From: a virus
Lineage: Duplodnaviria > Caudoviricetes
Strand: one strand, 5' to 3'
Length of the DNA stretch: 54,690 nt
Virus record (IMG/VR): IMGVR_UViG_3300037246_000474
Span: 1 to 54,690 of that record
A program made the position numbers and the translations under genes. The notes below the pieces were generated by a model that worked only from the letters and a program-made list of their open reading frames with translations, searched no databases and was not told the DNA's origin. Below, piece after piece: positions 11,001 to 44,974 of the stretch. Positions within the stretch are counted from its first letter, which is position 1. Every line of letters begins with the position of its first letter.

Positions 11001-11012
11001 CTTACCCCCTTT

Positions 11013-11047: not shown

Positions 11048-11097
11048 TCGATCAGGAAGGAGTATGGGAAAATACTCCCTCCCGAAAGATAACACAT

Positions 11098-15251: not shown

Positions 15252-15458
15252 TTATTCCATCGTGTTGAATACCATGCTCATAAAATCATGAACAAAGTCT
15301 CTGTCTATTTTCGACCCATAATCCAAGATCGCATCTGGCACCGTGTCACAGTGTCGAATCATTTCCTTGAACTGCGTAAACTCTTTCTCTGTCTCAAAAC
15401 GAATGTTCAAGTTTTTTGGTTGCCATTCTTTGTCTACATTATCTACAGTCACTATCAT
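15252..15458 (-). CDS. hypothetical protein
   Basis: ATGA coupling to the upstream gene. Confidence 0.65.
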   Translation of the reverse strand: MIVTVDNVDKEWQPKNLNIRFETEKEFTQFKEMIRHCDTVPDAILDYGSKIDRDFVHDFMSMVFNTME

Positions 15459-18578: not shown

Positions 18579-19766
18579 CTATCCTTTCATTACTGCTAAG
18601 GGTCGTAGCTGTATCATAGGAGACACTAAGTCCATCTGGTTGTCCATTACCTCTTCGATGTCCTTGTAGGCACCTGTAGCCTCGTCTAAGTCCTTCTCAG
18701 TACGCAGGGAATGAATGATGCCCTTAGCATTCATGTAGTCTATCTCGTCATCTATGTCTAATCTTCTTTGAGCCTCTTTTCTGCCCATCTTTCTACCTGC
18801 TCCGTGACTACATGAGCGAAATGACTCAGCGTTCCCCTTGCCTTTAACGATGTAACTCATTGAGCCTTGGGAACCTGGAATGATTCCTATCTCGTCAAGC
18901 TTTGCAGAAGTTGCACCTTTACGATGAACCATAACGTTCTCGCCAAAGTGGTTTTCCATACGTGCATAGTTATGAGCCACATCTATCGCAGGGTCATGAT
19001 CTTCCTGAATGTCTAGCATTGCATAGAATGCACTGACAACACGTGACATCATTTCCTTCCTGTTCAATCGTGCAAACTCCACGCAATAGTTCATCTCTGC
19101 GATATAGCTCCTGCCATGGATACTGTCTAGTGGAAGAAACGCCAATTCATGAGATATTGGCACGTTAGAATAATACTCAGAATTCATTGCTATTGCAATC
19201 CTGTTGTAATAATCAGCAACCTGCTTGCCTAAGTTTCTGGAACCACTATGAATCATTATCCATATATACCCATCAGAACCCATCTGTATCTCTATGAAGT
19301 GATTACCGCCACCAAGGGTACCTAAAGACTTCCTCGCATTGGTATTCTCTGTACCTGCAACCATGTTCTGCAATCCCTCTGGGTCCTGCGGTTGTGGCAT
19401 CCTTGTTATTGGTCTTGGCTTTGAGTGTTTCTTGTATCCGAAAGGTATCTCTTTTCGAATAAGGTTCATTGCATACTTAAGAGTCATTTCATCTGGAGCC
19501 TCTCTCAATGGTAGCCTTACTGCAGACATACCACACCCAATGTCAACGCCAACAGCGTTAGGTACTACATACCCCTTGGTAGCTAAAACTCCACCAATAG
19601 GCATACCGTAGCCCATGTGAGTATCTGGCATTAATGCTATGTGTTTGAATGCGAATGGTAGGTTTGATAGATTTGTTGCTTGCTCGGCTGTCTTACCGTC
19701 TATTGTAGGACACCAAGATTTGATTGGTAACTTCTGAAAATCTACGTCTGGCGGTATTACAATCAT
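18579..19766 (-). CDS. rtcB: RtcB RNA ligase
   Basis: MPDTHMGYG, GVDIGCG, GGGNHFIE, HSGSR, HRKGA, HGAGR, AYKDI. Confidence 0.97.
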   Translation of the reverse strand: MIVIPPDVDFQKLPIKSWCPTIDGKTAEQATNLSNLPFAFKHIALMPDTHMGYGMPIGGVLATKGYVVPNAVGVDIGCGMSAVRLPLREAPDEMTLKYAMNLIRKEIPFGYKKHSKPRPITRMPQPQDPEGLQNMVAGTENTNARKSLGTLGGGNHFIEIQMGSDGYIWIMIHSGSRNLGKQVADYYNRIAIAMNSEYYSNVPISHELAFLPLDSIHGRSYIAEMNYCVEFARLNRKEMMSRVVSAFYAMLDIQEDHDPAIDVAHNYARMENHFGENVMVHRKGATSAKLDEIGIIPGSQGSMSYIVKGKGNAESFRSCSHGAGRKMGRKEAQRRLDIDDEIDYMNAKGIIHSLRTEKDLDEATGAYKDIEEVMDNQMDLVSPMIQLRPLAVMKG

Positions 19767-19789
19767 TATGAAACCCCTTTCATAAAAAA

Positions 19790-20091: not shown

Positions 20092-20096
20092 GAATA

Positions 20097-20267
20097 TGGA
20101 TGGGAGTTTTTAATTTTCGTTTATGCAGAACCCCCAAATGAAAACTGCCATCTGGTGGTGGTACTTCACTGGTTTCGGTCTAGGCGACTTACGCCAGCTT
20201 CTCCACCTCTTATTGGATGCCGTAGTTGGTTACGAGCCAACCTTTAGTGGAGGACATCCTCACGGCC
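20097..20267 (-). ncRNA. three tandem CCA-terminated non-tRNA stem-loops (20214-20267, 20153-20207, 20097-20152)
   Basis: each has paired 5'/3' ends followed by CCA; none folds as a cloverleaf. Confidence 0.5.
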
Positions 20268-20270
20268 TTA

Positions 20271-20356: not shown

Positions 20357-20752
20357 TTATCTCTTTCCTGCTTCAAGTATCGGAAGACCACCTTCGGTTG
20401 GTACATAAATTACCTGATTATCCGTTTCCGTTAAGCTGTCAATCCATAGATATCGCAGGTACCCTTCATTGTCCTTTAAACTGTCACCGATAATCTTATT
20501 GGCTTTTGCCACACCCTTTGCTCTTTCGACCTCTGCATCGGCTAACAGGGTTGCACTTTCTTTCTTTGCCTTGGCAGATTCAATCGTAATCTTCTTGGTC
20601 CACTCTGCTTCTCTCAGCGTTGCCTGACCTGCCAGATTCTGCTTGTACACCCTGTACTTCGGGAGAGTTGCCATCAACACTACTACCATAAGTATGATAA
20701 ATACGACAGCACCTGCAATTACCTTCAAAACCGCTTTCATCTCTCTGTCCAA
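20357..20752 (-). CDS. membrane-anchored coiled-coil protein (SPFH/prohibitin-tail-like)
   Basis: N-terminal TM helix; AEVERAKGVAKANKIIG...YLRYLWI...VIYVPTE. Confidence 0.75.
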   Translation of the reverse strand: MDREMKAVLKVIAGAVVFIILMVVVLMATLPKYRVYKQNLAGQATLREAEWTKKITIESAKAKKESATLLADAEVERAKGVAKANKIIGDSLKDNEGYLRYLWIDSLTETDNQVIYVPTEGGLPILEAGKR

Positions 20753-20789: not shown

Positions 20790-21053
20790 TCATTCTACTG
20801 GTGTAACTTTAAATCTTGCTACCGGAGGTCTGTTTCTACATGGCGTATCATCTATGGATATCCATCCCATGACAGCACCAATTGGAGGAAATAAACCAAT
20901 TCCTCGGAGTACTTCTGCCTTGACAGGACTTTTGAAATCAAGCTGTGTGAACTTATAGCAATTCATCATCCAGCCCACACCCAAAAGCACTACCAATACG
21001 CATCCCAACAGTAACGTTCCACCGCACATCGTGCCAAACGAACTTCTTTTCAT
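20790..21053 (-). CDS. small membrane protein
   Basis: two hydrophobic segments; AAGGGGGA SD. Confidence 0.7.
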   Translation of the reverse strand: MKRSSFGTMCGGTLLLGCVLVVLLGVGWMMNCYKFTQLDFKSPVKAEVLRGIGLFPPIGAVMGWISIDDTPCRNRPPVARFKVTPVE

Positions 21054-21072
21054 AATTCCCCCTTATAAAATA

Positions 21073-21553: not shown

Positions 21554-21634
21554 TCTGTTCTCCTAGAAATAAGGAAGCTGTCTTGTGGCAGGTCGACAAT
21601 TAAGGCACTGACCCATGGTGCCACTTCCAAGGAA

Positions 21635-21704
21635 TGGTGGGGTAGACAGGAGTTGACACCTGCCCAAGACAAAGATACTAGCTCCGTCTCTGCACTCGCA
21701 CCCC
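21635..21704 (-). ncRNA. D-arm-less tRNA-like RNA ending in ACCA
   Basis: GGGGTG/TACCCC stem, GACGGAG-CTAGTAT-CTTTGTC arm, GGCAGG-TGTCAACT-CCTGTC T-like arm. Confidence 0.6.
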
Positions 21705-21714
21705 ATATATTAAA

Positions 21715-32056: not shown

Positions 32057-32701
32057 CTATTCTCCTTTATATAATCCATGCATTGCCCTTGCAACCTCAT
32101 GTAGTTCGAGATCGTTGAAGTGCATACATCGATAGTCATAGTGAGCAAAGATTAAAAATCCCTGCTTAGTTGCTCTCTCGCAAAATGCGATGTCATTACC
32201 TTTGTCAACAGTGCCGTCAACATTATATGTTCTTTGGAACGGAGCTTTTCTCATTTCTGGATGCTCGAAAACTCTACGTGCATAAAGCACACACCCTGTC
32301 CCTACTGCATCTACTCTTTGTAATCCCTTTTTATCTGGCCATTCTGTATAAGCACCTTCTTCTGGTACTGCCTTGTATGCATTCTCGTATATTGGACGCT
32401 CACCTTTCACCTTATCTGTAAAGTGCCACACTGGAGTAGGTAGCCCTATTATATCAAGATTGAATATCACCAAGTCTAACGGGTTGCTCATTGGTGGATT
32501 GTCTGAGTCTATGTTCAACCAGAAATCATATTCACCTGCCATAAACTCGTTCACTATATGATGTAAATTATTTTCATATGGATTGTGAGTTGGATAAATG
32601 ATCGTACTTTTATATCTTTGGTCTGTAAGTATCCTGTTTGTTGCCAAGCTTACTAATTTGTGTACATATCCTGTGTTCGGTACTGTAACGAGTATTTTCA
32701 T
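32057..32701 (-). CDS. GT-A fold (GT2-like) glycosyltransferase
   Basis: KILVTVP, LNIDSD (DxD), VDAVGTGCVL, NDIAFC; start ATG 32701. Confidence 0.8.
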   Translation of the reverse strand: MKILVTVPNTGYVHKLVSLATNRILTDQRYKSTIIYPTHNPYENNLHHIVNEFMAGEYDFWLNIDSDNPPMSNPLDLVIFNLDIIGLPTPVWHFTDKVKGERPIYENAYKAVPEEGAYTEWPDKKGLQRVDAVGTGCVLYARRVFEHPEMRKAPFQRTYNVDGTVDKGNDIAFCERATKQGFLIFAHYDYRCMHFNDLELHEVARAMHGLYKGE

Positions 32702-32720
32702 TTTATTCCCCAATAAAATA

Positions 32721-32768
32721 TGGTGGGGGAAAGAGTGGGATTAACTACCTCCAAACACTCAATCCCCC
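32721..32768 (-). ncRNA. CCA-terminated stem-loop
   Basis: GGGGGA...GAGTG...CACTC...TCCCCC-ACCA. Confidence 0.4.
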
Positions 32769-32774
32769 GATTAA

Positions 32775-33323
32775 TTAAACAACTGCTTTTCTGTCCAACA
32801 TGTTAACTCCGGATTTTACTTTCTTGTCAACCCAAAGCTTGTTGTGATTCTTCCTGATACCCCTTGTTTCAGTTGTAACATCGATAGCGTCTGCCTTTTC
32901 AGGGACAGCCAGTCCGAGTGCTTCCTTCTGAGTGATAGCATCAAGAACATCTGTATCAACGTGTTCTGCAGCTTCGTGTGCATGAGCCTTGTCATTATAG
33001 AATGCTTCAAACTCGGCTGATGTTAGCTCTGTAATATCCGCAGGAAACAATGCAAGTGCTTCATCTGCAAAAGCTGCCTCAACTGCTATAACGCAACACT
33101 GCTGACCGAACGGAGTATCACCCTCTTCTTTGTGGCCACAATCCTTGTCATACTGCATTCCGATACCAAAGGCATCGATGTAAGAACACCAGTCCATGCC
33201 TTTCCTTGCCACGTTACTCACTTTGTTGAACTCAGGGTACTTTGCATGTCCTATCTTGTTACCACCCTTGTCTACTGTGTGTATTCCTGCGTGGAACTTT
33301 AGTGCTACCAAATCTCTTGCCAT
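32775..33323 (-). CDS. hypothetical (tail-associated) protein
   Basis: AAGGAG SD; 182 aa. Confidence 0.75.
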   Translation of the reverse strand: MARDLVALKFHAGIHTVDKGGNKIGHAKYPEFNKVSNVARKGMDWCSYIDAFGIGMQYDKDCGHKEEGDTPFGQQCCVIAVEAAFADEALALFPADITELTSAEFEAFYNDKAHAHEAAEHVDTDVLDAITQKEALGLAVPEKADAIDVTTETRGIRKNHNKLWVDKKVKSGVNMLDRKAVV

Positions 33324-33347
33324 CTTTTTTCTCCTTGTTAAAAAAAA

Positions 33348-34142
33348 CTATCGGATTAAATCGTCTCTAAATATTCCCCACCAATCTATAGATGCAACCC
33401 CACTAGAGGTTTCAATCCACGCACTGGCCTTTACTATTGAAAATGCAGGTACCAACGCATGTAACGGCACTGGACCCGTTGTATTTTTGTTTACATAAGC
33501 TGACCCCTTGAAACAGAAAACCCCCGGAAGTAATTCGCCATGCATATCAGTAGATCGTATCCTGATAACACAGTTCTTAGAGTTGACTTCTCCACCATGC
33601 CACCCCATAAGAAGTAATTTCTTTCCTCTTGGCACCATTCTATGTGGTACTAATGATTTGTTACCACCTGCGGCAACCATATTATAGACAAGGGTTGGGT
33701 CACCTTTCTTGTAAACCCTTACATGTCCTTGGCAAACTCCATTCGAACCTACCGTGACTGAGTGCATGTCTTGGATAAATATTATATTAGTAGCTACGGT
33801 ATCTACTCCTGTTTGTCCGTTCATTGTAACGACTTCATATCGCACATCTCCATGGGAATCAATGTACTCTATTTCCATGGTTAACACACCAGTTGCGGTT
33901 GCACCATTATCAGCATCACTTTCACTGATAAGTGTCATTTGCTCTCCGTCTCTTGATGGAGTTGGTATGGTCGTATGTGATGCCACCGTGTTCGGAGTCA
34001 CAGATAGCTCATTGCCTCTCCATATATCTTCTCCCGTAACAGTGGTACCCATGCCTGATCTTTCACCCATGGCATTGACGAGTACATGACCAGGAATCTT
34101 TCCTGCTTGTAGATCAATCATCCAACTATTTTCTAAAAACAT
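33348..34142 (-). CDS. putative virion structural protein
   Basis: AAGGAG SD; beta-rich composition; tail context. Confidence 0.7.
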   Translation of the reverse strand: MFLENSWMIDLQAGKIPGHVLVNAMGERSGMGTTVTGEDIWRGNELSVTPNTVASHTTIPTPSRDGEQMTLISESDADNGATATGVLTMEIEYIDSHGDVRYEVVTMNGQTGVDTVATNIIFIQDMHSVTVGSNGVCQGHVRVYKKGDPTLVYNMVAAGGNKSLVPHRMVPRGKKLLLMGWHGGEVNSKNCVIRIRSTDMHGELLPGVFCFKGSAYVNKNTTGPVPLHALVPAFSIVKASAWIETSSGVASIDWWGIFRDDLIR

Positions 34143-34153
34143 CTTGGTTCTCC

Positions 34154-37100
34154 TTAAATAAACCTATTGGTATAAACATCAGCATATGCGTCAAGTGTAA
34201 GCATGAACAGTGACTGTGCCACCGTACCATTCGGATTCGCAAATGCACTGGTCGTTAGAGATAGAACTGGAAGTGTAATATTGGCATTTCCATTTTCACC
34301 CTTAAACGCATGGGCATTGATATCGAGCATAGGAAGCGTTCTATTGCCTCCTGACAACGATACTATACCCTGCAGTCCAGTTATATTAAAGCTAAATTGT
34401 GGTAGTGAATTAGTGAATGTCGCAATGTTCTCTTGATCTGCTTTAACATTTATGACCATTCTTGGCAAGCTCTTACTGAACGTACCGACAAATCCATTCT
34501 CACCAGATGCAGTTATTGCGAATCGTGGTAGTGTCAAATCTACTGGATGTCCACTGAACGCATTCAGCGTCATCATCGGCATACTTATATCTAAGTTCTC
34601 AACACTTCCTTGTTCGCCTACCGTGTAGAACGTAAACCTTGGTAGTGTTATATCAATAGTACCACGTGGCATATCTGCTTTAGCCGAAACTGTGATTACA
34701 GGAAGATTAAGATCGCCCTCATTAACGATAGGGTCACCTGCCACAACTGTAAGTATCGGAATAGTAATGGTTCCAATGTTTCCAGTTTGAGTAGATGATG
34801 ATTGTATTCCAAGTATTGGAAACGAGATCGTAGCCGTTGCAGGTGCTAAATCATTAGCGGCTATTGTCATGACAGGAAGTGCAACTACGCCTGACGTTGC
34901 AGATGGAGTACCTGTCGATGCTACTTCTAACAATGGTAAGCTGATCTCACCTGTGGCACCACTGCCTCCTTGAACCAACAGTATAGGCAAGTCTATAGCA
35001 CTATCACCTGTATTATTAGGGTCAAATTCTGCAGGTGCCGTTGCGTCTACACTTAATATTGGTAAATCAAATGCACCATCGCCTGGTGTGTCATTTTCAG
35101 TATTAAGTCTCGCAGTTACGGCATTTGTATCAATACCAAGAGGGTGAATGTCAATCCCACCAACATATTCACTTGTTTTAATCGTAGAAGTAAACTGACC
35201 AGACTGTTGGAAAAGTTTGTCACTGGTGAACCCTACCCATAGAGTGTTTGTTCCATCCCATGATATACCATTGGGGGAAATGTCTGTCGCACCGATATAT
35301 TCACTTGTCTTAAGAGTACTTGCGAATTGTCCTGATTGAAGGTATAGTTTGTCTGCCGAATTTCCACACCATGGAGTGTTGGTTCCATCATAGCTTATCC
35401 CTGTAGGAGCGACATCTACTCCTGCTACAGCCCTACTTGTCTTAAGAGTACTTGTGAATTGCCCTGATGTAAGATAGAGCTTATCGCCACTTTGCCCTAC
35501 CCATGGAGTATCTGTTCCGTCCCAAGAAATATCATTAGTACCTATCTCTATTGCAGCTACATCTTCACTTGTTTTTAGCGTTGAAGTAAACTGCCCTGAT
35601 TGTAGGTAGAGCTTGTGTGCTTCGTCACCCATCCATGGAGTGTTGGTTCCGTCCCATGAGATACCTGTGGGAACACCATCTATTGTCGTGACAAGTTCAC
35701 TTGTCTTAACCGTAGATGTAAACCGACCAGATTGCAGGTATAGTTTGTCAGCCTCAATACCACACCAAGGTGTATCTATTGCATCAGGTGTGAAGCCAGT
35801 TAGTATTGGTAAATCAATCGCAACGCTACCTGAGTTGTCGGGATTAATTGGTACCCTGGCATCAAAGTCATTTGTATCCAAATCCTTAAGAACCGTGTCT
35901 ATGGACTGCACCGACTGACTGGTCTTCACGGTGGTTGTTACTTGACCAGACATAACAAATAGTTTATCTTGGAAATCCAAAGCGGCTAACGTGTCTGTAC
36001 CAGTATAACTAACACCGCTCACATCATTACGAAATGCACTGGACTTCGTGGTTGAAGAAAACTGGCCAGACATTATGTATATCTTATCGCCTGCCATACC
36101 ACACCATGGAGTGTTGGTTCCGTCCCATGAGATACCTGTGGGAATAACGTCAATTGAGCTAACATCTTCACTGGTCTTAATGGTAGACGTAAATTGCCCA
36201 GATGTTAAATATGCTTTCTTAGCTTCGCTGCCTATCCATGGCGTATTAAACCTGTCCCATGTTATACCAGTAGGCGAGATGTCAATTGAGCTAACAGCTT
36301 CACTGGTCTTAAGAGTAGAAGTATATTGCCCAGACTGGAGGTATAGTCTCTCACCGTTCACACCACAGTACGGAGTATTTGTTCCGTCCCACGCTATGCC
36401 TTGAGCGTTAAGTTCAATACCACTAATAGACTGACTAAATCTTAGTGTAGACGAGAATTGACCAGACGTTAAGTATAGCTTGTCTGATGTTATACCTACC
36501 CATGGCGTATCTGTTATAGAGAATACAAAAAGGTCAAGTCTTGCGGCTAAATCGCTTGTGTCAACACCAGTTGGTACCGTTTCAACTCCACCTACAGATT
36601 CACTTGTCTTTATGGTAGACGTAAACTGACCTGATGTGATGTATAGTTTATCACCACCTGCTCCTGTCCATAGAGTATCGGTTCCCGTGTACGAGATACC
36701 TTGTGGTGAGTCATCAATAGCATTAACATATTCACTCGTCTTTAAGGTGCTTGTGAACTGGCCGCTTTGTAAATACAGCTTATCATCTGTGTAACCACAG
36801 TATGGAGTATTCGTTCCGTCATAACTAATTCCATCAAGACCTGACTCTATGGCAGATACACTTTGACTTGTCTTTACGGTACTTGTGAACTGACCAGATT
36901 GGAGGTATAACTTCGAGGTTAAGCTACCTGCCCATGGAGTGTTGGTTCCGTCCCATGAAATATCTAATGGAGTAATATCTTCTGATGAAATATCTTGTGA
37001 TGATTTCAAGGTAGAGGTGAACTGACCAGACTGGAGAAAGAGTTTATCAGTCGGACTCTTACCTACCCATGGAGTATTGGTTAAGTCATAAGTTACGCCT

Positions 37101-37216
37101 TGAGGACTAAGGTTCCATGTGGTAATATCCTGACTGTCTTTAAGCGTAGACGTGAAAGTACCAGATGTAAGATAAAGCTTATCATCGATTTCTCCACACC
37201 ACGTTATATCTGCCAT
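34154..37216 (-). CDS. repeat-rich tail/receptor-binding protein (3 x 5 beta-propeller blades + beta-stranded stalk)
   Basis: 15 copies of a ~44-aa unit TPWxG...KLYLQSGQFTSTLKTS...GISWDGTN, then many short GxIxLPxL repeats. Confidence 0.8.
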   Translation of the reverse strand: MADITWCGEIDDKLYLTSGTFTSTLKDSQDITTWNLSPQGVTYDLTNTPWVGKSPTDKLFLQSGQFTSTLKSSQDISSEDITPLDISWDGTNTPWAGSLTSKLYLQSGQFTSTVKTSQSVSAIESGLDGISYDGTNTPYCGYTDDKLYLQSGQFTSTLKTSEYVNAIDDSPQGISYTGTDTLWTGAGGDKLYITSGQFTSTIKTSESVGGVETVPTGVDTSDLAARLDLFVFSITDTPWVGITSDKLYLTSGQFSSTLRFSQSISGIELNAQGIAWDGTNTPYCGVNGERLYLQSGQYTSTLKTSEAVSSIDISPTGITWDRFNTPWIGSEAKKAYLTSGQFTSTIKTSEDVSSIDVIPTGISWDGTNTPWCGMAGDKIYIMSGQFSSTTKSSAFRNDVSGVSYTGTDTLAALDFQDKLFVMSGQVTTTVKTSQSVQSIDTVLKDLDTNDFDARVPINPDNSGSVAIDLPILTGFTPDAIDTPWCGIEADKLYLQSGRFTSTVKTSELVTTIDGVPTGISWDGTNTPWMGDEAHKLYLQSGQFTSTLKTSEDVAAIEIGTNDISWDGTDTPWVGQSGDKLYLTSGQFTSTLKTSRAVAGVDVAPTGISYDGTNTPWCGNSADKLYLQSGQFASTLKTSEYIGATDISPNGISWDGTNTLWVGFTSDKLFQQSGQFTSTIKTSEYVGGIDIHPLGIDTNAVTARLNTENDTPGDGAFDLPILSVDATAPAEFDPNNTGDSAIDLPILLVQGGSGATGEISLPLLEVASTGTPSATSGVVALPVMTIAANDLAPATATISFPILGIQSSSTQTGNIGTITIPILTVVAGDPIVNEGDLNLPVITVSAKADMPRGTIDITLPRFTFYTVGEQGSVENLDISMPMMTLNAFSGHPVDLTLPRFAITASGENGFVGTFSKSLPRMVINVKADQENIATFTNSLPQFSFNITGLQGIVSLSGGNRTLPMLDINAHAFKGENGNANITLPVLSLTTSAFANPNGTVAQSLFMLTLDAYADVYTNRFI
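35633..36144. repeat. 41-bp exact direct repeat inside the propeller gene
   Basis: CCATGGAGTGTTGGTTCCGTCCCATGAGATACCTGTGGGAA at 35633-35673 and 36104-36144; partial copies near 35370 and 36933. Confidence 0.85.
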
Positions 37217-37226
37217 TATATCTCCT

Positions 37227-38456
37227 TTAGGTTGCTGTTATATATTCTGATTTTGATGATGTTGCTATACAATCATAATCGACATTGACTACGTTGGGTC
37301 TGTTTGACCACCACCCTTCTGGAGCTATAAGGGCCATAGGCGTTCTGTCTATAGGTGTTGGTGATACCGTTGCCCAATCATCAAAGCTTGTGAATGTGAT
37401 AGTTATGGGTGTTTCGGCTATCCTTAACTCCCTTACCTGTTCTGTCATTTCTATTGCAAGCGCAAAACTGCTATTAGCGTTTTCAAATAAAGGCAAATAT
37501 GGAGTAGTATTTATAAGTATCTTTAATTTATCTTGTGGGGTATCCAGTCTTGCCGCATAAGCCTCCGCACCCATTGCCATCCTTTGGGTAGAAGTTGTTA
37601 TTGCTGCCCTATTTCCTGCCAGTATATATGCGATAAACGTTTCAACGTCAAAGAAATCAGTGATTTCGTATTCCCACACAGAATATCTTTGCCTATAGAA
37701 GAAACCCCTAAAACCAGAACTACCCAAATCTCCTTCATCGTCCCACCCTGGACCTTCATCAACGTAAATGTTTTGCTCTGCGTATACACTATCCGATACT
37801 GTAATCTCTGCAAACGGCTTTGCATTAACATCTGCAAGTGCCTCAGCGTTGACTTCGTCTTGATCTCGGTCAGGTTGAAGCGAACCTTCCCACGCATGGA
37901 AATCACTAATTCTCTCGAAGCTAGTTACATTCGTAGCGATGAGTCCTATTGCTGTTTGTACGAATTGGGACTTAAACGTGTTCCATGCTTTTACACTTAC
38001 ATCGAAAACACCGCTTTCTCTGTATTTGTGTGTTAGCTTGTTTGCGCCTCCTGTACCTCCTTGACCCTTACGTCCATCACCATATGATATTATAAGAGTT
38101 GATCTCACTAGGTCGTTAATTTTAGGTTCAAATCCTTCTGCGGTGAAGGTAAAAACTGTTTCGAGTGGAGAGGCTCCTTCTAGTACATCCCCAACAAAAC
38201 CGATGCTACAACCAACACCACCCTCTGCACATGAGTGTATCCTGATGAAGTCAGAACCGCCTATAGATAGTAGATGCACCCACACACAATCTCGGTCTAA
38301 GTAATGCACCCTCTTCATATATTGAAGCTTTCCTATCCTCATCACCTGTTTCATTTCAAACATGCGTCTCTTTGCTATGCCTACGTATGTACCTGCTCTC
38401 TGCCGATCTCCCGACAGAATTAATCCTCTCCCCGATTGTATGTTGATGTTTCTCAT
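37227..38456 (-). CDS. tail protein with PKD-like domain
   Basis: ISYGDG...THKYRESGVFDVSVKAWN. Confidence 0.7.
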   Translation of the reverse strand: MRNINIQSGRGLILSGDRQRAGTYVGIAKRRMFEMKQVMRIGKLQYMKRVHYLDRDCVWVHLLSIGGSDFIRIHSCAEGGVGCSIGFVGDVLEGASPLETVFTFTAEGFEPKINDLVRSTLIISYGDGRKGQGGTGGANKLTHKYRESGVFDVSVKAWNTFKSQFVQTAIGLIATNVTSFERISDFHAWEGSLQPDRDQDEVNAEALADVNAKPFAEITVSDSVYAEQNIYVDEGPGWDDEGDLGSSGFRGFFYRQRYSVWEYEITDFFDVETFIAYILAGNRAAITTSTQRMAMGAEAYAARLDTPQDKLKILINTTPYLPLFENANSSFALAIEMTEQVRELRIAETPITITFTSFDDWATVSPTPIDRTPMALIAPEGWWSNRPNVVNVDYDCIATSSKSEYITAT

Positions 38457-38472
38457 TATTTTAAGTGTATAT

Positions 38473-38518
38473 AAAAAAAGGGCCGACAGTATCAGCATAT
38501 GCCAACACTATCAGCCCT
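38473..38518 (-). terminator. intrinsic terminator
   Basis: AGGGCTGATAGTGTTGGC...GCTGATACTGTCGGCCCT followed by a T-run. Confidence 0.8.
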
Positions 38519-38545
38519 CGAATAAAACCTGCAAACGAAGGGCTT

Positions 38546-38611
38546 TGGTGAACTACCTTCTAAGGGGGAACAACAATGATATGGGGTATCAAAGTTCATG
38601 TCCAGTAGTTC
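38546..38611 (-). ncRNA. candidate CCA-tailed antisense RNA
   Basis: GAACTACT/GGTAGTTC stem + ACCA; internal CATTGTTGTTCCCCCTT complementary to the RBS at 41989-42005. Confidence 0.5.
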
Positions 38612-38621
38612 GTTAAAGACC

Positions 38622-39065
38622 TTACGCAGCAGGCATAGTGATGTCGAACGTATCAATCGTTGTCGTTGCAGCAGACGTAATTGATGTCGAACTCATATTC
38701 AATTCTGCACCAGATGTTGACACGGCACCCTGTATACGAATCTCAGAGGTACTTGTTCCATTAGCATCAGATGTACTCGCACAATACCTAAAGTATCCTG
38801 CCGTTCCAGTAGCTACAGCGACACCATCCCAAGTATTTGAGGACTTAGATAGTACTCCTGCGACTGCTGTGTTTAAGAAATGTAGGTTGTAGGCACTACC
38901 TGTAGACGTGTTAATTGTTACAAGCAATGTACCAGTTGCGGTGTCATCAGCCGTTGCAGGTGCAGAGCCAGACCAAATTCTGATCTCTCCTGCAGCAAGT
39001 AACGTATTCAGACCTGCGGTGTGTAGGATTCCTTGACGGAGTCCTGTGGATAGACTTAGAGTCAT
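38622..39065 (-). CDS. small Thr/Ala/Gly-rich virion structural protein
   Basis: IRIWSGSAPATADD...GTAGYFR...RIQGAV motif common in phage tail modules. Confidence 0.8.
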   Translation of the reverse strand: MTLSLSTGLRQGILHTAGLNTLLAAGEIRIWSGSAPATADDTATGTLLVTINTSTGSAYNLHFLNTAVAGVLSKSSNTWDGVAVATGTAGYFRYCASTSDANGTSTSEIRIQGAVSTSGAELNMSSTSITSAATTTIDTFDITMPAA

Positions 39066-39140
39066 AACTTTCTCCTTAAATAGTAAAGGTATTAAAATAA
39101 ATTAATTCGTCACCTCTAGCGTATTCGGGAGTTCTGGTCT

Positions 39141-39180
39141 AAGTACTAATTGGGTACTAATTGATACTAAATTAGTATTT
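39141..39180. promoter_or_regulatory. TACTAA(T) tandem/inverted repeat, candidate operator
   Basis: TACTAA at 39144, 39155 and 39165 plus the inverted repeat ATACTAA-A-TTAGTAT. Confidence 0.4.
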
Positions 39181-39226
39181 AGGGAGTCAGAGTCAAATTG
39201 CTAAATAGCATTATTCTCTTTGTTGC

Positions 39227-40165
39227 TTATGTCCACAATGATGCAATATACTGCGGTACACCACCTGTGATTTTAAATTGACCTGCACCGTAACGGTTTT
39301 GGGTCACTTCGTATTTAGTTGCTGTTAAATTGGTGAACCTTCCACTGTTCTCTCCAAGGCATATTCCTTTGCGTGAAGTCCATATCACTTTCTTACCTAC
39401 GTTCCCATCACCGACATAAGCGGATTTGGTCTTCACTGCAGTACCTTCAATCGCTCCATAGTGTGCAACTTCTCTTGAATGCATATCTACCGGAGTACTT
39501 CCTGTCAGAAACAAAATTGAGCTTCTGTCATTTATATCACCAATGGATACATACAATCCGTCATCCACTGCTTTCATCATAGTCACTTCATCCTTCATCT
39601 TAATGGCATTAGTTCTCATATCAATAACACCATGGTTATATGCATCAGTGTACCAGATTGTTTCGTTTTTCGCAATATACAATCTGCCGTTATAATACTC
39701 AATGTGTTGACCTGTCTTCGTAGCTACCTTGTAATTGTCAGAAGGTGTAGAGTACTGGTTATCAGCACCAGTTGAATCAATATACCCATTAACCGTAGCG
39801 TTTGAATAATAAACATTTTCATTGACATCTACAAAGCCCATTGGTTGGTTTCCGCAGTCAGTCCTTATTGTTGTAGAACTGTAATCTGACCACAATCTCT
39901 TTAGAGTAGTTCCGTCCATAAATAGACAGATACGATCATTGCTCCAAAGACTATGCATTTTATCGGAAGGAGTAAATATCCTCGTATACCCATTTCGCCT
40001 CTTCACCTTTCCTTCGTTATCTATATCGACATTCTCGCCCTCTGCCAGTTCACCTATCTCTAGGTTATTAGCATCAGCTACATTATTGATACCTGTGAAA
40101 TTCTGGAACGGTATCTCTGACCCACTAAGGCTTCTGTTCTTTGCATCTTCTCTATTTTTTGCCAT
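39227..40165 (-). CDS. tail nozzle/stabilisation-like beta-propeller protein
   Basis: FTGINN...ENVDIDNEGKVKRRNGY N-terminus typical of podovirus nozzle proteins. Confidence 0.7.
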   Translation of the reverse strand: MAKNREDAKNRSLSGSEIPFQNFTGINNVADANNLEIGELAEGENVDIDNEGKVKRRNGYTRIFTPSDKMHSLWSNDRICLFMDGTTLKRLWSDYSSTTIRTDCGNQPMGFVDVNENVYYSNATVNGYIDSTGADNQYSTPSDNYKVATKTGQHIEYYNGRLYIAKNETIWYTDAYNHGVIDMRTNAIKMKDEVTMMKAVDDGLYVSIGDINDRSSILFLTGSTPVDMHSREVAHYGAIEGTAVKTKSAYVGDGNVGKKVIWTSRKGICLGENSGRFTNLTATKYEVTQNRYGAGQFKITGGVPQYIASLWT

Positions 40166-40770
40166 TAGTCATTTAGTATTTTCTTAGAACCAAAGTATTT
40201 TTCAAATAATGCTAGATAGTCTGCGGCTTTATCTGTATTCAACGTCTCGGAATCATTCTTCAAATATGCCCTGTAGCACATCCATAAAACCAACCCTTGG
40301 TGATACCTAGAATCGATCTCCGGACTGCCATTTACCGTCATTGGAGTGGTTGGAAACCTCGAAACAGTCAGGTTCAATACAGAAGCCACTGAGGGTATCG
40401 GGTAGATGATTATGTTGTTAGTTGGGGTCATGACATAGCTTCGTGGTGTTCCTTCGGCTGTGCGCCATCCTGGGACGCTATTATCCAAGACTTTCTCCGA
40501 GGTTTCCATCAGAGGCTCTGAGCCGTTTGCCATCAGTGCTGATTTGACTGCTATCACTGTTGAAGCTATTCCGTAGGTGCCTGTTGTCGATGTCGTGACA
40601 ATACCAGTGAGTGCGCTTTCAGTATCGATTATAAGGTCGGCTCTCTCGCATGCTTCATTCTCAGCATCCTGTGCATACTCAAGCAACTCCAACTGTGACC
40701 ATAATTTGTCAGTAGTTGAATTGTCATCAAGCGTTCGTCTTGCTGATAACTCCATAGATGAAAAGTCCAT
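40165..40770 (-). CDS. head-tail adaptor-like protein
   Basis: ARRTLDD...WSQLELLEYAQDAENEAC...GTPRSY...IYPIP; start ATG 40770. Confidence 0.75.
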   Translation of the reverse strand: MDFSSMELSARRTLDDNSTTDKLWSQLELLEYAQDAENEACERADLIIDTESALTGIVTTSTTGTYGIASTVIAVKSALMANGSEPLMETSEKVLDNSVPGWRTAEGTPRSYVMTPTNNIIIYPIPSVASVLNLTVSRFPTTPMTVNGSPEIDSRYHQGLVLWMCYRAYLKNDSETLNTDKAADYLALFEKYFGSKKILND

Positions 40771-40859
40771 TATCTTCCTCTCTTGAATAAATAATACTTG
40801 AGCCACTTACCAGTGGAGGTCTTTGTTTTAAGCTTTTTCCTTCCGGATTTCCTCTTCAT
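40770..40859 (-). CDS. 29-aa highly basic peptide (not in the ORF track)
   Basis: MKRKSGRKKLKTKTSTGKWLKYYLFKRGR; TAATG overlaps at both ends. Confidence 0.55.
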   Translation of the reverse strand: MKRKSGRKKLKTKTSTGKWLKYYLFKRGR

Positions 40860-41521
40860 TAATCTACTACTACACTACGTGGTGACCTTACCCGTCCTAC
40901 AACAAATGATCTTGGCTTTACCTCTATCTCTTCACCATCTTTGGCGATCTCCACCTTGAGTCGGTTTCTACGCTTCTCGTAATCCCTCTCAAAGTATACC
41001 GCAAGCTCTGCATTAAATGCTTTCGGTGAAGTGTATATCTTCCACTTGACGTAAGATTTAACTGCCTCTTTATGTCTTCTCTCTATTCTTGGTGGAACCA
41101 CACCATCCACACTGTTAGGTTCTATAATAGCTTCTACTGAATAAGATGTAGCTGTATCTGGTGTGACATTGAAACGTATACCATTATCGCCATCGTATAT
41201 AGCTCCGTCAGGTGTTCCTGATCTTTGCTCCCATTCCGAATCCCTTTGGTCCATTGCTCTATTAGAAATCGGGTCCAGAGTCTTGTTATTGTATTTGGCT
41301 TGCCATAAACCAACCATGTCTGCATTGGCAGTCATAACTGAAACGGCATACGAGGCTGTATCTGCGGTAGTCGTTAAGCCTGTAACAGATTCCGTCCAAC
41401 AGGAAGTCTCTCTGCACAAGTCCTGTATACCATCAAGCATGAGTTGTTCAACGAATATATCCTTCGTATCTGGCAACTCGGCAATTATCTTTATCCTGAA
41501 ATCTAATATATTTAATGACAT
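40859..41521 (-). CDS. head-tail adaptor-like protein (paralog)
   Basis: DLCRETSCW...GTPDGAIYD...FNVTPD. Confidence 0.7.
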   Translation of the reverse strand: MSLNILDFRIKIIAELPDTKDIFVEQLMLDGIQDLCRETSCWTESVTGLTTTADTASYAVSVMTANADMVGLWQAKYNNKTLDPISNRAMDQRDSEWEQRSGTPDGAIYDGDNGIRFNVTPDTATSYSVEAIIEPNSVDGVVPPRIERRHKEAVKSYVKWKIYTSPKAFNAELAVYFERDYEKRRNRLKVEIAKDGEEIEVKPRSFVVGRVRSPRSVVVD

Positions 41522-41991
41522 TATAAGCGTTTTCCTTCTTCGTCAATCAGCCAACATTCGATTAAATCAGTCCTCTTTGCAAGCAGTTCTGTCCATTCAA
41601 ACACACGTCTGTTCTTCGGATTGAATATGTATTCCGGAGTAATCCTCGTCTCTCCTGTCTCTTTTATATTTACATTGCTACTGTTTGTGTCTGTTGGTAT
41701 TTCTAATTTATTTTTAATAAGAAGAACGACCTCAGTCCTGAGCATCTTAAGTCTCTTGCTCAAATCAAGTCTCTTTCCCAAACGAGAGTCTGTATACTTT
41801 TGCAATCCCATCTTGTCCATCTCAACAACTTTCAGTATATCTTCTCTGCAGACCAACTCTGGTCTATTTGGTTCTTTGCCCTCACCGATAGCCAATGACT
41901 CTTCACTCTGATTTGTGTCTTTTGATTTCTCTGCAACCGCAGTCGCACCCTGTTCAAGCTGATCGATTAAATCATCCTCTGGATTTCCCAT
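41521..41991 (-). CDS. conserved hypothetical head-module protein
   Basis: AAGGGGGA SD; C-terminal VFEWTELLAKRTDL. Confidence 0.75.
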   Translation of the reverse strand: MGNPEDDLIDQLEQGATAVAEKSKDTNQSEESLAIGEGKEPNRPELVCREDILKVVEMDKMGLQKYTDSRLGKRLDLSKRLKMLRTEVVLLIKNKLEIPTDTNSSNVNIKETGETRITPEYIFNPKNRRVFEWTELLAKRTDLIECWLIDEEGKRL

Positions 41992-42019
41992 TGTTGTTCC
42001 CCCTTGACATTATTATTAT

Positions 42020-42066
42020 AAAACTAAGGGAAGGAGAGGCCTCGAAAGCTATTCTCCCTCCCTCAG
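42020..42066 (-). terminator. hairpin/terminator after the capsid genes
   Basis: CTGAGGGAGGGAGA...TCTCCTTCCCTTAG followed by TTTT. Confidence 0.6.
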
Positions 42067-42084
42067 ATAATTTACATCTACGGC

Positions 42085-42546
42085 TTAAAATGCAGTGTCA
42101 TTACCTGGGTCAGCTATAAAACCCCAAGCTCCAACTCTGATCTTTGCAGCATCCAGATCGGCAACTGGTATGATGTCAATCGTGTCAGCTACAGGATAAA
42201 ATTTTCCTCTACCACTGTTTCTCGCACCATATACTGCAGTAGTGCTACAGAAGTCAGTAGAAGTAGTGTTCAGATTACACATTGTAGTTGTTAGCCAACC
42301 ATCAGTGTCTACTCCGTCACCCACTTGACATGGTGTAGAAGTTGGCCACTCAGCAACCTGTGTCTCAACAAATACTCCCATGCAGAAGAACCCTGCAGGA
42401 ACATTAAGCATCTGCAATACATCTGCAGCAGTTACAGTGTTAGCTGCAACGCTAAAGTCCCTCGTTCTTTGGAGCAACACCATCTTCGGCATATCCTTCT
42501 CTGATATACCTTGAGAGCCTCCAAGTGTTAAATTTCTAAGTGCCAT
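42085..42546 (-). CDS. capsid decoration/cement-like protein
   Basis: follows the MCP gene; ADVLQMLNVPAG...VGDGVDTDGW. Confidence 0.65.
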   Translation of the reverse strand: MALRNLTLGGSQGISEKDMPKMVLLQRTRDFSVAANTVTAADVLQMLNVPAGFFCMGVFVETQVAEWPTSTPCQVGDGVDTDGWLTTTMCNLNTTSTDFCSTTAVYGARNSGRGKFYPVADTIDIIPVADLDAAKIRVGAWGFIADPGNDTAF

Positions 42547-42590
42547 CGTTAATCCTCCTTTATGAAAAATAATAGAATAATATAATCAGC

Positions 42591-43466
42591 TTACACCTTA
42601 GTTGCTGGCATGTAAACTCCGGCTTCTGGTTTCGTTGCCTTGTAACCATATACCTTTAGACCCCTGATAGCGTCTCCGAAGCTGTTCTGCAATCTCAATG
42701 TTTCAGTCTTTACAAACTGAGAAGCGAAAGAGATGAAGTGCTTCGTTCCTGCCATACAGTGGAAGGTTCCGCTTGCAGCAACTCCTGTGAGAGCGATGTT
42801 GTTACTGTTGTACAGCGTAAACCTATCGATCATACCAAGTCTACCGTTCCTCATTATAGAGGTTCCATCTCCGGCAAGTGATGCATCCTTAAGATCAGAC
42901 TGCTTTATCATACCTGCAATCCATGGCGGTATTACCAACCAACGTCCTGCTTCTGGAACATTTGCTTCATCCAGTGCAGTACCTGCATTGATTATCCATA
43001 CCAATACATTAGACGCTGTAACAACCGTTGATGCCAGTACGTTAGCTGCGTCAGTGTACACGTTACCCAAAACATCTTGGTCAACGACAATCTTCATCTG
43101 CTCAGATGCGTCTTGAGTAGTTTTGTTTACAATCGCAATGTCAGACTGAACTTCGTCAATGTCATCTACCTTAAATGCAAAGTATTTGGCCTTGTCGATA
43201 AGCAATTCAATCTTGTCATCTTCTAAGTCTTGGTAGTTGATTGTACCACCAATTCCGTAGTCTCCAATGGTAACTGTTGGAATAGCTCTGATTATGACCT
43301 TACTACCAGAACCCTTGATCTCACCTTCCCAATCATGGTTAGCGATCTCTCCCAATACTGTTGATGCATAGAACTTCGCCTGCATCTTCTTAGACCATAT
43401 TTCAGGTATAAAATTACCATTAGGTAACGAACTATATCCTGCGGCAACTGATACGTGTCTTCCCAT
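42591..43466 (-). CDS. major capsid protein (P22 coat-like)
   Basis: NFIPEIWS...EGEI...GSKVII; GRWLVIPP; GDAIRGLKVYG. Confidence 0.9.
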   Translation of the reverse strand: MGRHVSVAAGYSSLPNGNFIPEIWSKKMQAKFYASTVLGEIANHDWEGEIKGSGSKVIIRAIPTVTIGDYGIGGTINYQDLEDDKIELLIDKAKYFAFKVDDIDEVQSDIAIVNKTTQDASEQMKIVVDQDVLGNVYTDAANVLASTVVTASNVLVWIINAGTALDEANVPEAGRWLVIPPWIAGMIKQSDLKDASLAGDGTSIMRNGRLGMIDRFTLYNSNNIALTGVAASGTFHCMAGTKHFISFASQFVKTETLRLQNSFGDAIRGLKVYGYKATKPEAGVYMPATKV

Positions 43467-43615
43467 CTCTAGTTCTCCTAAATTAATTAATAATTACGTG
43501 TTAAAATAATGCTCACATTCTTATTAGCTCGTTTAGGAGTTGTGGTCACTTGTTCCCCAACAAAATGAGAATCACAGTTAAACCGCCAATACTTTGCCCT
43601 GTGAATGGGCTACTT

Positions 43616-43936
43616 CTACTGTAGAAAAAGCTTACCGTCAGCGACATCCTTATCGATCAGGTGTTCGATTTTGATAAACTCTTCCAATTCCATATCTTCA
43701 ATTTGACTTCTTGAATACTTGCTAAAAACTTCATCGTCTTCGCCAAGTATGGTTCTTATCTTTTTCAGTTTTGCCTTAAGAGATATATTCTCCGTGGCAT
43801 CAACATTCGCCTGACCCTTCCACTCGTCTCGGTTTTTCTCCGCTTTTCTGAGCCTGTATCTAAGGTCATCGGTAGTGTATGATTTTGATACTTCTATACG
43901 TTTACTTCCAAGCAACTTCTTTAATATCCCAAACAT
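43616..43936 (-). CDS. small protein carrying a copy of the scaffold C-terminal motif
   Basis: YSRSQIEDMELEEFIKIEHLIDKDVADGKL versus scaffold FTRSQINNMDDAEFAKNEDAIDRAMASGQI. Confidence 0.7.
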   Translation of the reverse strand: MFGILKKLLGSKRIEVSKSYTTDDLRYRLRKAEKNRDEWKGQANVDATENISLKAKLKKIRTILGEDDEVFSKYSRSQIEDMELEEFIKIEHLIDKDVADGKLFLQ

Positions 43937-43954
43937 TTTTATTCCCCAATAAAA

Positions 43955-44974
43955 TTATATCTGTTGTATCTGTCCACTTGCCATTGCCCTATCAATAGCG
44001 TCTTCATTCTTTGCAAACTCTGCATCGTCCATGTTGTTGATCTGCGATCTAGTGAACAACATTTTCTTCACACCAGTATCAATATTCTTAGACTTCTTGT
44101 TTGATGGATTAGACAGGCTCTTGGCAAGCTTAATCTTGTCACTCTCGCCCTCGTCACCACCCTGGAATTCTTTAAACTCGTCAAACACCTCGATAACGCT
44201 ATTCGCAGAACCACCTTTAAGGTCAAGCATGGCTAAACGTTTTGCACGTGGCTTAAGCTGTTGTAAGTATTCCGCAAACTCTGGAGTCTGCATTGTAGCT
44301 TCCCATCCATCATGCGCACTGTCTATCTTGTCGAAGTGTGCATCGTTCGCATCTTCTATAGCCTTGTTCTTTGCGTTCTCTCTCTCGGTTGCTAAGTCTT
44401 CTTTGAGACCGTCCATTTGACCAACAATGCTTTCAACGATAGGCTTCATTGCGGCAGCCATATCAGGGTCGAGTTTCTCCATTGTGGCTATTTGATCTGC
44501 TAAGGCTCCAGTGGTTTTCTCAACAACCTTCTCTGCCCTTGCTTCTTGTTTCACTGTCTGAGCATTCTGCAATGCTTCCATCTGAGTCTTTAGTTTGAAT
44601 ACCGTATCTTCAAGCTCAGAGGTTTTGTCAGTAGCTTCTTTAAGTTCTTGCCTCCCTCTGGTATGATCTGCACGTGTATCTTTGACCCTCTTCTCAGACT
44701 TATTTAGCTTGTCGAGTAGGTCAGTTATTGCAGGGTCGATCTTTACAGCTTCTTCGCCATCTTCGCTGCCATCCTTATCAACTTCCTTATCATCAGGGTC
44801 AATATTCTTCTCTTTATCGTCCTTGCCAGTCTTATCATCTTCGTCTCCACCGTATGCTTGTTTTATTAGTTCATCCGCTTCGTCTTCTAACTCCTGAGAC
44901 ATCTGCAATGTATCGTTTCCTGTGCTTTTAGCTATATTGTCTTCTGCTGATTCTTTCTTCTTATCTTCTTCCAT
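43955..44974 (-). CDS. scaffolding protein
   Basis: acidic N-terminus, coiled coil, position between portal and MCP. Confidence 0.8.
   Translation of the reverse strand: MEEDKKKESAEDNIAKSTGNDTLQMSQELEDEADELIKQAYGGDEDDKTGKDDKEKNIDPDDKEVDKDGSEDGEEAVKIDPAITDLLDKLNKSEKRVKDTRADHTRGRQELKEATDKTSELEDTVFKLKTQMEALQNAQTVKQEARAEKVVEKTTGALADQIATMEKLDPDMAAAMKPIVESIVGQMDGLKEDLATERENAKNKAIEDANDAHFDKIDSAHDGWEATMQTPEFAEYLQQLKPRAKRLAMLDLKGGSANSVIEVFDEFKEFQGGDEGESDKIKLAKSLSNPSNKKSKNIDTGVKKMLFTRSQINNMDDAEFAKNEDAIDRAMASGQIQQI

Follow-up and report, generated by a model that had tools for sequence, protein, structure and literature searches.

Recurrent GGGG-loop hairpins at ribosome-binding sites of an uncultured tailed phage and their possible role in restraining translation initiation

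The window analysed here is the whole of the IMG/VR virus record IMGVR_UViG_3300037246_000474 (54,690 bp, with an estimated completeness of 80%). It comes from a tailed phage with a double-stranded DNA (dsDNA) genome, the minus strand of which carries the genes from ~6.6 kb onward. In this genome, an identical 19-nucleotide (nt) sequence folds into a short hairpin at the ribosome-binding sites (RBSs) of two unrelated genes, with the Shine-Dalgarno (SD) sequence in a GGGG loop. Hairpins of the same design are found at other starts, are over-represented with respect to shuffled and real-sequence controls, and are conserved in relatives. We tentatively read them as cis-acting occluders of the RBS that would provide a built-in brake on translation, an interpretation that we hold to be plausible although somewhat short of probable. 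Of note, the usual SD in this phage is AAGGAG(A), and the GGGG variant is found at ~ten genes.

The 19-mer ATTTTATTGGGGAATAAAA is present in exactly two copies, at 32701-32719(-) and 43937-43955(-), hereafter called sites 1 and 2, with no further match at up to 3 mismatches, and two or more matches were found in 0 of 100 dinucleotide shuffles. An earlier note on this DNA had reported the same 19-mer directly before the ATG of two unrelated genes and its folding as TTTTATT-GGGG-AATAAAA with the SD in the loop. We recovered both observations, as the 19-mer is exact at the two sites and the in silico folds of both copies agree. The corresponding proteins, of 214 and 106 residues, are considered unrelated because their BLASTP E value is 0.19. 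At site 1, the final A of the 19-mer is the A of the ATG (32701-32699) that opens the 214-residue gene (32057-32701). At site 2, the ATG (43936-43934) of the 106-residue gene directly follows the 19-mer, and the TAA stop codon of an upstream gene coding for a 339-residue protein (43957-43955) abuts the stem. Both hairpins recur in folds of longer context. The 214-residue protein is similar to clusters of hypothetical viral proteins, and glycosyltransferase families are carried by a minority of these clusters; a look-alike search with the 106-residue head-region protein gave no lead. The hairpins found at start sites are listed here, G001 being a complete 68-kb relative with nucleotide identities of ~70-88% in blocks.

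32699-32720, minus strand: RBS hairpin of site 1; 9 bp, -3.8 kcal/mol at 37 °C in isolation; the same in G001
32720-32712, minus strand: 5' arm of site 1 (UAUUUUAUU)
32711-32708, minus strand: GGGG loop of site 1
32707-32699, minus strand: 3' arm of site 1 (AAUAAAAUG), which includes the AUG
43934-43957, minus strand: RBS hairpin of site 2; 7 bp, -2.2 kcal/mol at 37 °C in isolation
43954-43948, minus strand: 5' arm of site 2
43947-43944, minus strand: GGGG loop of site 2
43943-43937, minus strand: 3' arm of site 2
19764-19785, minus strand: RBS hairpin of the RtcB gene, UUAUGAAA-GGGG-UUUCAUAA plus UG; 8 bp, -5.4 kcal/mol; ATG at 19766-19764
21048-21070, minus strand: looser hairpin at the RBS of the 87-residue gene 21053, UUUUAUAA-GGGGGAA-UUAUGAAA; -2.9 kcal/mol; ATG at 21053-21051

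When both strands were scanned for GGGG flanked by complementary arms with stems of at least 6 bp, the coding strand had five such sites and the opposite strand had none. These are sites 1 and 2, a third copy of the motif in the capsid leader (see below), the start of the RtcB gene, and a stem inside a large hairpin 5' of site 1, the latter not being kept in G001. The RtcB stem is of mixed sequence and differs from the UUUUAUU/AAUAAAA stem of the repeated 19-mer, with the same loop; the hairpin starts 4-5 nt past a transfer RNA (tRNA), tRNA-Glu (3' end at 19789/19790). The looser hairpin of gene 21053 lies two bases past the CCA end of tRNA-Gly and has CCATATTTTAT in common with site 1. The five sites are drawn from 77 coding-strand GGGG sites, while 300 dinucleotide shuffles gave a mean of 0.44 and a maximum of 3, none reaching 5. 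The same count yielded 0 of 546 sites in 51 unrelated phage loci and 3 of 1,177 in 79 bacterial loci, and chance is excluded by these comparisons. Stems of at least 6 bp that enclose the SD are found in 11 of 51 RBSs (flank-swap mean 5.68; 1.0% of 1,000 permutations reach 11), and those of at least 7 bp in 7 of 51 (flank-swap mean 2.56; 0.6% of permutations reach 7). The GGGG-loop RBS hairpins thus form a genuine, small and lineage-specific class, consisting of sites 1 and 2, the RtcB start and, loosely, gene 21053.

The earlier note had made its proposal depend on conservation of the motif in orthologous RBSs. Our search of the genome and its relatives bears this out, since the RBS hairpin is recurrent, kept, and more conserved than its flanks. 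The four conserved hairpins are all at matching places in G001, the nucleotide identity of which is ~80% overall. The window, G001 and sequence L055 agree at 22 of 22 nt of the RtcB hairpin, with RtcB itself being 80% identical in G001 and 72% in L055, and around the hairpin the next codons and the preceding tRNA differ between genomes. Site 2, readable in nine distinct sequences, forms an 18-nt island in diverged flanks (mean column identity 71%), with 63 of 63 cells paired. The only substitutions there are A-to-G changes in the 3' arm, at two positions in four sequences, and they retain pairing as U.G. The N-terminus of the following gene product varies among relatives and the motif is constant. 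As an internal control, the spacer between the SD and AUG of the capsid gene has no invariant column in an 11-sequence alignment of the capsid leader that takes in all nine site 2 genomes. Finally, in a comparison of 36 RBSs with those of G001, the RBSs endowed with a complementary partner had the best identities, namely 32701 (25/25), 19766 (24/25) and 41991 (24/25; see below).

If the hairpins form in vivo, the 19-mer would be a translation initiation region folding on itself, with the GGGG variant of the SD in the 4-nt loop and the U-rich 5' arm paired with the A-rich spacer and start codon. Occlusion of the spacer and the AUG would reduce ribosome loading and make it conditional on melting of the stem. 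A tetraloop is unable to pair in full with the anti-SD as long as the stem is closed. By prediction, opening of positions -18 to +6 would cost 10.5 kcal/mol at site 1, 9.4 at site 2 and 7.8 at the RtcB start (ranks 3, 5 and 8 of 53, respectively), compared with averages of 5.8 for RBSs and 8.6 kcal/mol for random windows. Such high costs indicate unusually closed starts and therefore argue for attenuation or conditional initiation rather than enhancement. The agent that melts the stem would probably be site-specific. At site 2, a ribosome terminating at the abutting stop codon might melt it, in a form of translational coupling. Elsewhere, melting might depend on temperature and on the 30S subunit together with protein S1, and the predicted stability approximately doubles at 4-10 °C (-6 to -10 kcal/mol). 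The hairpins may belong to a wider habit of this phage, in which RBSs would be given their own complementary partner, be it a local hairpin, a segment 60 nt upstream (capsid gene) or one 3.4 kb downstream (gene 41991).

Several points weigh against occlusion by the hairpins. They are weak at 37 °C (-2.2 to -5.4 kcal/mol), below the range where, as reported for the MS2 coat gene, structure clearly limits initiation, and -6 to -10 kcal/mol is predicted only at 4-10 °C. U-rich stretches before the SD and A-rich spacers are each common alone, which makes complementarity by chance easier. Among site 2 orthologues only one-sided changes from U-A to U.G were found (2 of 7 pairs), and because no pair has changed on both sides, the structure is not proven by covariation. 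The RBS at 39065, devoid of such a stem, also scores 24/25 against G001. Site 1 is covered by only one relative and the RtcB hairpin by only two. In addition, the start codons for the RBS statistics were picked by eye, with 1 of 52 lacking an SD core and dropped to leave 51.

The third copy of the motif, and the capsid leader in which it lies, include the following features.

43549-43566, minus strand: third copy, UUUGUU-GGGG-AACAAG; not an RBS
43475-43539, minus strand: capsid leader helix, in which CUCCUAAA (43539-43532) pairs with the capsid SD region UUUAGGAG (43482-43475)

As described in the earlier note, the third copy (ATTTTGTTGGGGAACAA, 43566-43550) has a G-C pair where sites 1 and 2 have A-U. 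The swap itself is therefore correct, but its description as a compensatory change is not supported, as the contrast is between paralogous sites and the site 2 orthologues lack two-sided changes. Nor is the third copy an RBS: it lies 84 nt upstream of the capsid ATG (43466), in a leader conserved across 11 sequences, and it is followed only by a GTG with a 20-codon frame that relatives do not keep. In both single-sequence and consensus folds, its GGGG pairs instead with UUCUCA (~43570-43565). This UUCUCA:UGGGGA helix is paired in 65 of 66 cells, compared with 58 of 65 for the GGGG-loop hairpin, and neither helix shows two-sided change. In 3 of 11 relatives, moreover, the loop is GAGG plus an inserted C. 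Judging from the alignment, the third copy does not support a GGGG-loop operator. The capsid leader helix is predicted in the 11-sequence consensus, with six of its eight pairs holding in 11 of 11 sequences and the other two each broken in one. We also observed that the 137-nt leader is more conserved than the adjoining coding sequence. In one relative, the metagenome contig L049, the match to the capsid gene begins at residue 22, behind an open reading frame (ORF) with a LAGLIDADG-type motif (…VAGLIDGEG…), which suggests the presence of an intron or intein with a homing endonuclease.

The earlier note had also proposed a C-rich RNA as a candidate regulator of the hairpins. This element is found in the 3' untranslated region (UTR) of a virion gene and is described by the following features, together with the RBS that it matches.

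38540-38612, minus strand: C-rich structured RNA in the 3' UTR of the 147-residue virion gene; outer helix, apical hairpin and 17-nt anti-RBS
38591-38577, minus strand: apical hairpin of the C-rich RNA, UGAUA-CCCCA-UAUCA
38578-38562, minus strand: 17-nt anti-RBS, CAUUGUUGUUCCCCCUU
38478-38519, minus strand: intrinsic terminator ending the C-rich RNA; 19 pairs and a U-run, with the stem compensated in relatives
41989-42005, minus strand: RBS of a gene for a 156-residue protein (41521-41991), AAGGGGGAACAACAAUG; perfect complement of 38578-38562

In five sequences, the C-rich fold pairs 92 of 98 cells and 5 of its pairs show two-sided changes, a result equalled by 0 of 500 shuffles; slid controls pair no more than 31-64% of cells. 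The many G.U pairs and the orientation of the terminator indicate that the element is a minus-strand RNA. Its unpaired motifs are the apical CCCCA loop and a CCCCCUU stretch, and its apical stem has A-U in the window and G-C in the four other sequences. On these sequence comparisons, the C-rich RNA is a genuine conserved structured RNA. A search with its core pattern found only four contigs, all known before. Of note, CAUUGUUGUUCCCCCUU and AAGGGGGAACAACAAUG make up a perfect 17-nt inverted repeat that includes the AUG of gene 41991 and whose arms are 3.4 kb apart. Of the genomes with both arms, 4 of 4 keep the complementarity over 16-17 nt, and one of them shows a compensatory switch, a pair at the duplex end having changed from A:U to U:A; in a further genome, G006 (L005), the element reads GGGGGAACGACAATG and the partner is cut off at the contig end. 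Rough estimates of net binding, with opening costs included, are -12.4 kcal/mol at 41991, -0.1 at site 1, 0.0 at site 3 (the third copy) and +1.0 kcal/mol at the RtcB start, site 2 being outside the best 16. The proposal thus holds for the existence of a conserved structured RNA and is not supported for its pairing with the hairpin RBSs, since predicted binding there is close to zero and the strongest partner is 41991. As identified from the sequences, this covariation-supported 3' UTR RNA with its 17-nt anti-RBS is the most interesting by-product of our analysis.

Some of the hairpins closely follow other structured elements. Site 1, gene 21053 and the RtcB start each lie 2-6 nt after a tRNA or, in the case of site 1, the stable hairpin below; for this reason, the U-rich arm may double as a trailer or U-tract.

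32721-32768, minus strand: G-run/C-run hairpin directly 5' of site 1; -23.1 kcal/mol; ends ...CCCCC-ACCA; stem compensated in G001

This hairpin is terminator-like or akin to a tRNA acceptor end. Intrinsic terminators have a GC-rich stem with a U-run starting within 0-2 nt; the stem of this hairpin is stable, ACCA lies between it and UAUUUUAUU, and our terminator scan did not list it. As a tRNA the hairpin received no ARAGORN call and no Rfam call at the gathering score or at E<=10, and its likeness to an acceptor end is limited to the ...CCCCC-ACCA terminus. Separately, we noted a family of G-run/C-run terminator-like hairpins of the form GAGGGAGGGAG...CTCCTTCCC, at 42030-42072(-), 32725-32768(-) and ~11050-11090(-). 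Two of them precede GGGG-type RBSs, and the loop motif GGAAGTAGTTNAACCC is common to relatives. A GRAGGTAGTTMAYC motif common to the site 1 hairpin and the C-rich region was discarded, as its 2 matches are at chance level.

The proximity to tRNAs and stable hairpins is in keeping with the idea that the hairpins are by-products, in which an existing U-rich tract (terminator U-tract, tRNA trailer or S1 enhancer) happens to complement the A-rich spacer, the identical 19-mers being RBS cassettes spread by recombination at gene boundaries. The distribution of the 18-mer points the same way: among 28 IMG/VR stretches that hold it, 8 are relatives of this phage and 9 form one unrelated phage group (GC content 0.52-0.55) in which the motif lies 1-2 nt before the ATG of an ORF of at least 120 residues, with its 5' half being the U-tract of a 12-bp terminator-like hairpin. 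Four other stretches form a low-GC group with the motif before an ATG that opens just 29 codons in one translated copy (L017), and the remaining 7 have it in other contexts, away from evident starts. Movement of such cassettes is suggested by a second pair of unrelated genes on opposite strands, which share 23 nt covering the RBS and first codons (ACAAGGAGAAAAAAGATGGCAAG; 5564-5586(+) and 33338-33316(-)), by the recombination proteins RecT and YqaJ encoded by the phage, and by the N-terminus after site 2, which differs among relatives next to an unchanged motif. However, the RtcB stem is of mixed sequence rather than a U-run facing an A-run, and its 8 bp are fully conserved. In addition, the stem excess persists in flank-swap controls that keep position-specific composition, the real-sequence controls contain almost no GGGG-loop hairpins, and all the site 2 substitutions retain pairing. 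We regard a by-product origin as unlikely, although the support for it is real. The same upstream elements could be accommodated if the hairpin separated two transcript or processing forms, a long RNA with both arms being poorly translated and an RNA starting or cut inside the U-rich arm being translated freely. Control of this kind is known from the T4 genes e, soc and I-TevI. The start could come from a promoter, as TATAAT immediately precedes the site 2 stem in three sequences (the window, L003 and L006), or the cut from processing of tRNA trailers, as three members of the class are located 2-6 nt past the end of a tRNA or of an ACCA-ended hairpin, where endonucleolytic processing is expected. 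Against this, no -35 element or conserved promoter motif was found, a promoter scan was at chance level (42 found versus 38.3 expected), and the stop codon also places a constraint on the TATAA of site 2, which is variable among relatives (TAATAA, TAAAAT, TATAAC). Such transcript forms thus appear very improbable.

Alternatively, the hairpins might be operators for a shared trans-acting regulator, as the earlier note had envisaged. One candidate is the C-rich RNA (38612-38540), through its apical CCCCA loop kissing UGGGG or its CCCCCUU stretch pairing with the G-run, and the other is a phage or host protein that would clamp the hairpin and prevent initiation. The GGGG loop is indeed constant while the stems differ, and arms and loop are conserved. 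The C-rich RNA is structured, with unpaired C motifs, and is antisense to one GGGG-type RBS (41991) over 17 nt; GGGGAAYAA of sites 1-3 could form 9 bp with UUGUUCCCC, and the raw duplex energies of sites 1-3 with the C-rich RNA (-16.1 to -16.3 kcal/mol) are within the top 14 windows of the strand. As for precedents, C-rich loops of Staphylococcus aureus RNAIII are described as acting on G-rich RBSs (PMC2837412). However, net binding of the RNA at the hairpin sites is predicted to be null or unfavourable, a 4-nt loop cannot fully pair without stem opening, and the genes concerned, coding for RtcB, the 106-residue head-region protein and the 214-residue protein, are functionally unrelated. Protein candidates are lacking as well. 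Six-frame family searches of the record did not find CsrA (PF02599), RegA (PF01818) or Hfq, nor was CsrA found in the six frames of G001 with a search that matched in control genomes. Among 30 small ORFs, no match to an RNA-binding Pfam family exceeded the curated cut-off of that family, and FinO_N, in a 127-residue ORF (20357-20740), was the sole RNA-related match, with 17 bits versus a cut-off of 25. A CsrA-like GGA binder, one of the regulators initially suggested, is not supported, as CsrA was found neither in the record nor in G001 and the GGA motifs are not loop-centred. With net energies around zero, no regulator family found and a third copy that is not an RBS, a shared regulator is without direct support; it is possible, but in our opinion doubtful. 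More speculative, and less likely still, is a scenario in which the GGGG-type RBSs of this lineage would constitute a small regulon of a phage-encoded riboregulator, namely the C-rich RNA. Its apical CCCCA and its CCCCCUU would dock on G-run SDs, GGGG being deliberately used instead of GGAG and some SDs being held in loops. Gene 41991 would be silenced through the complete duplex of 17 nt, and contacts with the loops would modulate the hairpin RBSs. If true, this would represent RNAIII/RsaE-like logic within the late gene block of a lytic phage. Apart from these RNA-level readings, a DNA-level operator for a dimeric repressor was set aside as unlikely, because the stems differ between sites and the variants keep pairing only as U.G in the sense RNA.

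We compared the hairpins with known systems of translation control, starting with occlusion in cis, the reading that we favour. Local hairpins of messenger RNA (mRNA) that occlude RBSs are known from the start regions of the MS2 coat and replicase genes and from T4 e, soc and I-TevI. Like those, the present hairpins are short and hold the start codon and spacer, the AUG being inside or at the base of the 3' arm (site 1, RtcB, gene 21053). They would need to be melted, which an upstream ribosome could do at site 2. They differ in that the SD is in a 4-nt GGGG loop, the weak stems of the 19-mer consist of A and U only, and the design is conserved and recurs at several unrelated genes. The MS2-type operator has a specific loop and a bulged purine that are read by a coat-protein dimer, whereas the stems found in this tailed dsDNA phage are perfect, without a bulge, and close a GGGG loop. 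CsrA/RsmA targets have GGA centred in a short hairpin loop, usually with at least two GGA sites per leader. The G-rich SD in the loop of a small RBS hairpin is reminiscent of them, but in our case GGA spans the loop/stem boundary, as with a GGGG loop it can arise only from the last two loop Gs and the first A of the stem; there is also one G-run per RBS, and the phage has no CsrA gene. In FourU and ROSE RNA thermometers the SD itself is paired in the closed state. The weak, AU-rich RBS stems whose stability rises steeply in the cold resemble these elements, but all minimum-free-energy folds of the hairpins in isolation place the SD in the loop. A literature search on loop-exposed SDs in phages retrieved no description of a GGGG-loop RBS hairpin, which is weak evidence of novelty.

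As for the C-rich RNA, a parallel is offered by S. aureus RNAIII, whose C-rich loops bind G-rich RBSs and make loop-loop contacts with rot mRNA (PMC2837412). Like RNAIII and the small RNAs with UCCC motifs (RsaE/RoxS), the phage element is a conserved structured RNA with unpaired C-runs by a terminator, G-rich SDs are possible targets, and one extended duplex covers an RBS, that of gene 41991. Unlike them, it is phage-encoded and lies in a 3' UTR within the late gene block that also contains its best target, and only weak pairing with the hairpin sites is predicted. The Rfam RsaE/RoxS model (RF01820) scored 13.7 bits on it (E value 4.7) versus a gathering score of 79, and the element is thus not a member of that family. 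If C-rich anti-SD riboregulators are regarded as a class with a common way of working rather than as a sequence family, the structure with unpaired C-runs and the terminator are both present, but the predicted net energies do not indicate favourable pairing with the RBS hairpins. The C4 antisense RNA of phages P1 and P7 belongs to the same operon as the genes that it blocks (PMC8198154). Similarly, the candidate antisense RNA described here is encoded by the phage alongside its putative target. Whereas C4 regulates immunity genes from an upstream position, our candidate lies downstream of the RBS of a structural gene.

Most knowledge of how mRNA structure controls translation in phages comes from a small number of model phages. 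The uncultured lineage described here shows a repeated, conserved design, with start sites that are paired with dedicated complements next door, 60 nt or 3.4 kb away. If functional, these elements would represent compact natural parts to set or switch translation, as well as a case of riboregulation inside a phage structural operon. If not, they usefully illustrate how easily U-rich and A-rich flanks of an RBS can look like designed hairpins.

The phage has no close cultured relative, the best capsid identity with cultured phages being 45%. Its structural genes code for a major head protein, a portal or adaptor, a terminase, two SU10-type adaptor proteins and a head-closure protein, and other genes code for RtcB, an RNA ligase, eight tRNAs, RecT/YqaJ, a primase-helicase and a 2232-residue polyvalent protein. 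We considered and rejected N4-style hairpin promoters, since the latter protein is a polyvalent one (LPD38, RadC-like) and not a virion RNA polymerase. Three DNA sequencing runs and no RNA run are listed for this sequence, and the single run covering it in full, labelled marine sediment, may be the source itself. A search of phage records for near-identical DNA gave no match, a scan for relatives with the 16-mer of the leader gave chance matches only, and searches with the 214- and 615-residue proteins found only G001 among close relatives. A metagenome scan with the capsid protein yielded one new usable sequence, L053, with L048 and L051 giving the same reading as L006. Among cellular RtcB proteins, the nearest homologues share ~60% identity and come from several phyla. 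A 72% identical RtcB is encoded on a 4.7-kb contig of a metagenome-assembled genome, which probably derives from a related phage. In an Rfam scan of the window, tRNAs alone reached the gathering score, and nothing credible was obtained at E<=10 near site 1, sites 2 and 3, or the C-rich region.

A set of RNA-repair and NAD-salvage genes adjoins the tRNA cluster, coding for an RNA ligase, a NAMPT/NAPRTase-like protein and RtcB (12526-13530, 15455-17053 and 18579-19766, all on the minus strand). Two non-coding stretches are found in this cluster: a 179-nt gap between tRNA-Asn and tRNA-Thr at 20092-20270(-), and a stretch at ~21630-21710(-) that ends in ...CCCCACCA, similar to the 3' end of a tRNA, and was not called as a tRNA. 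Intergenic direct repeats that may be operator or promoter elements are present before the 147-residue gene (39066-39226(-), AATTAGTA in three copies) and before gene 10903 (~10990-11045(-), TTTAAATGGGGTAAT in two copies); a direct-repeat scan of the window revealed no repeat family bearing on intergenic elements. Lastly, the gene for a 1020-residue protein (34154-37216(-)) harbours at least nine diverged tandem repeats of 132 nt, corresponding to 44 residues each.

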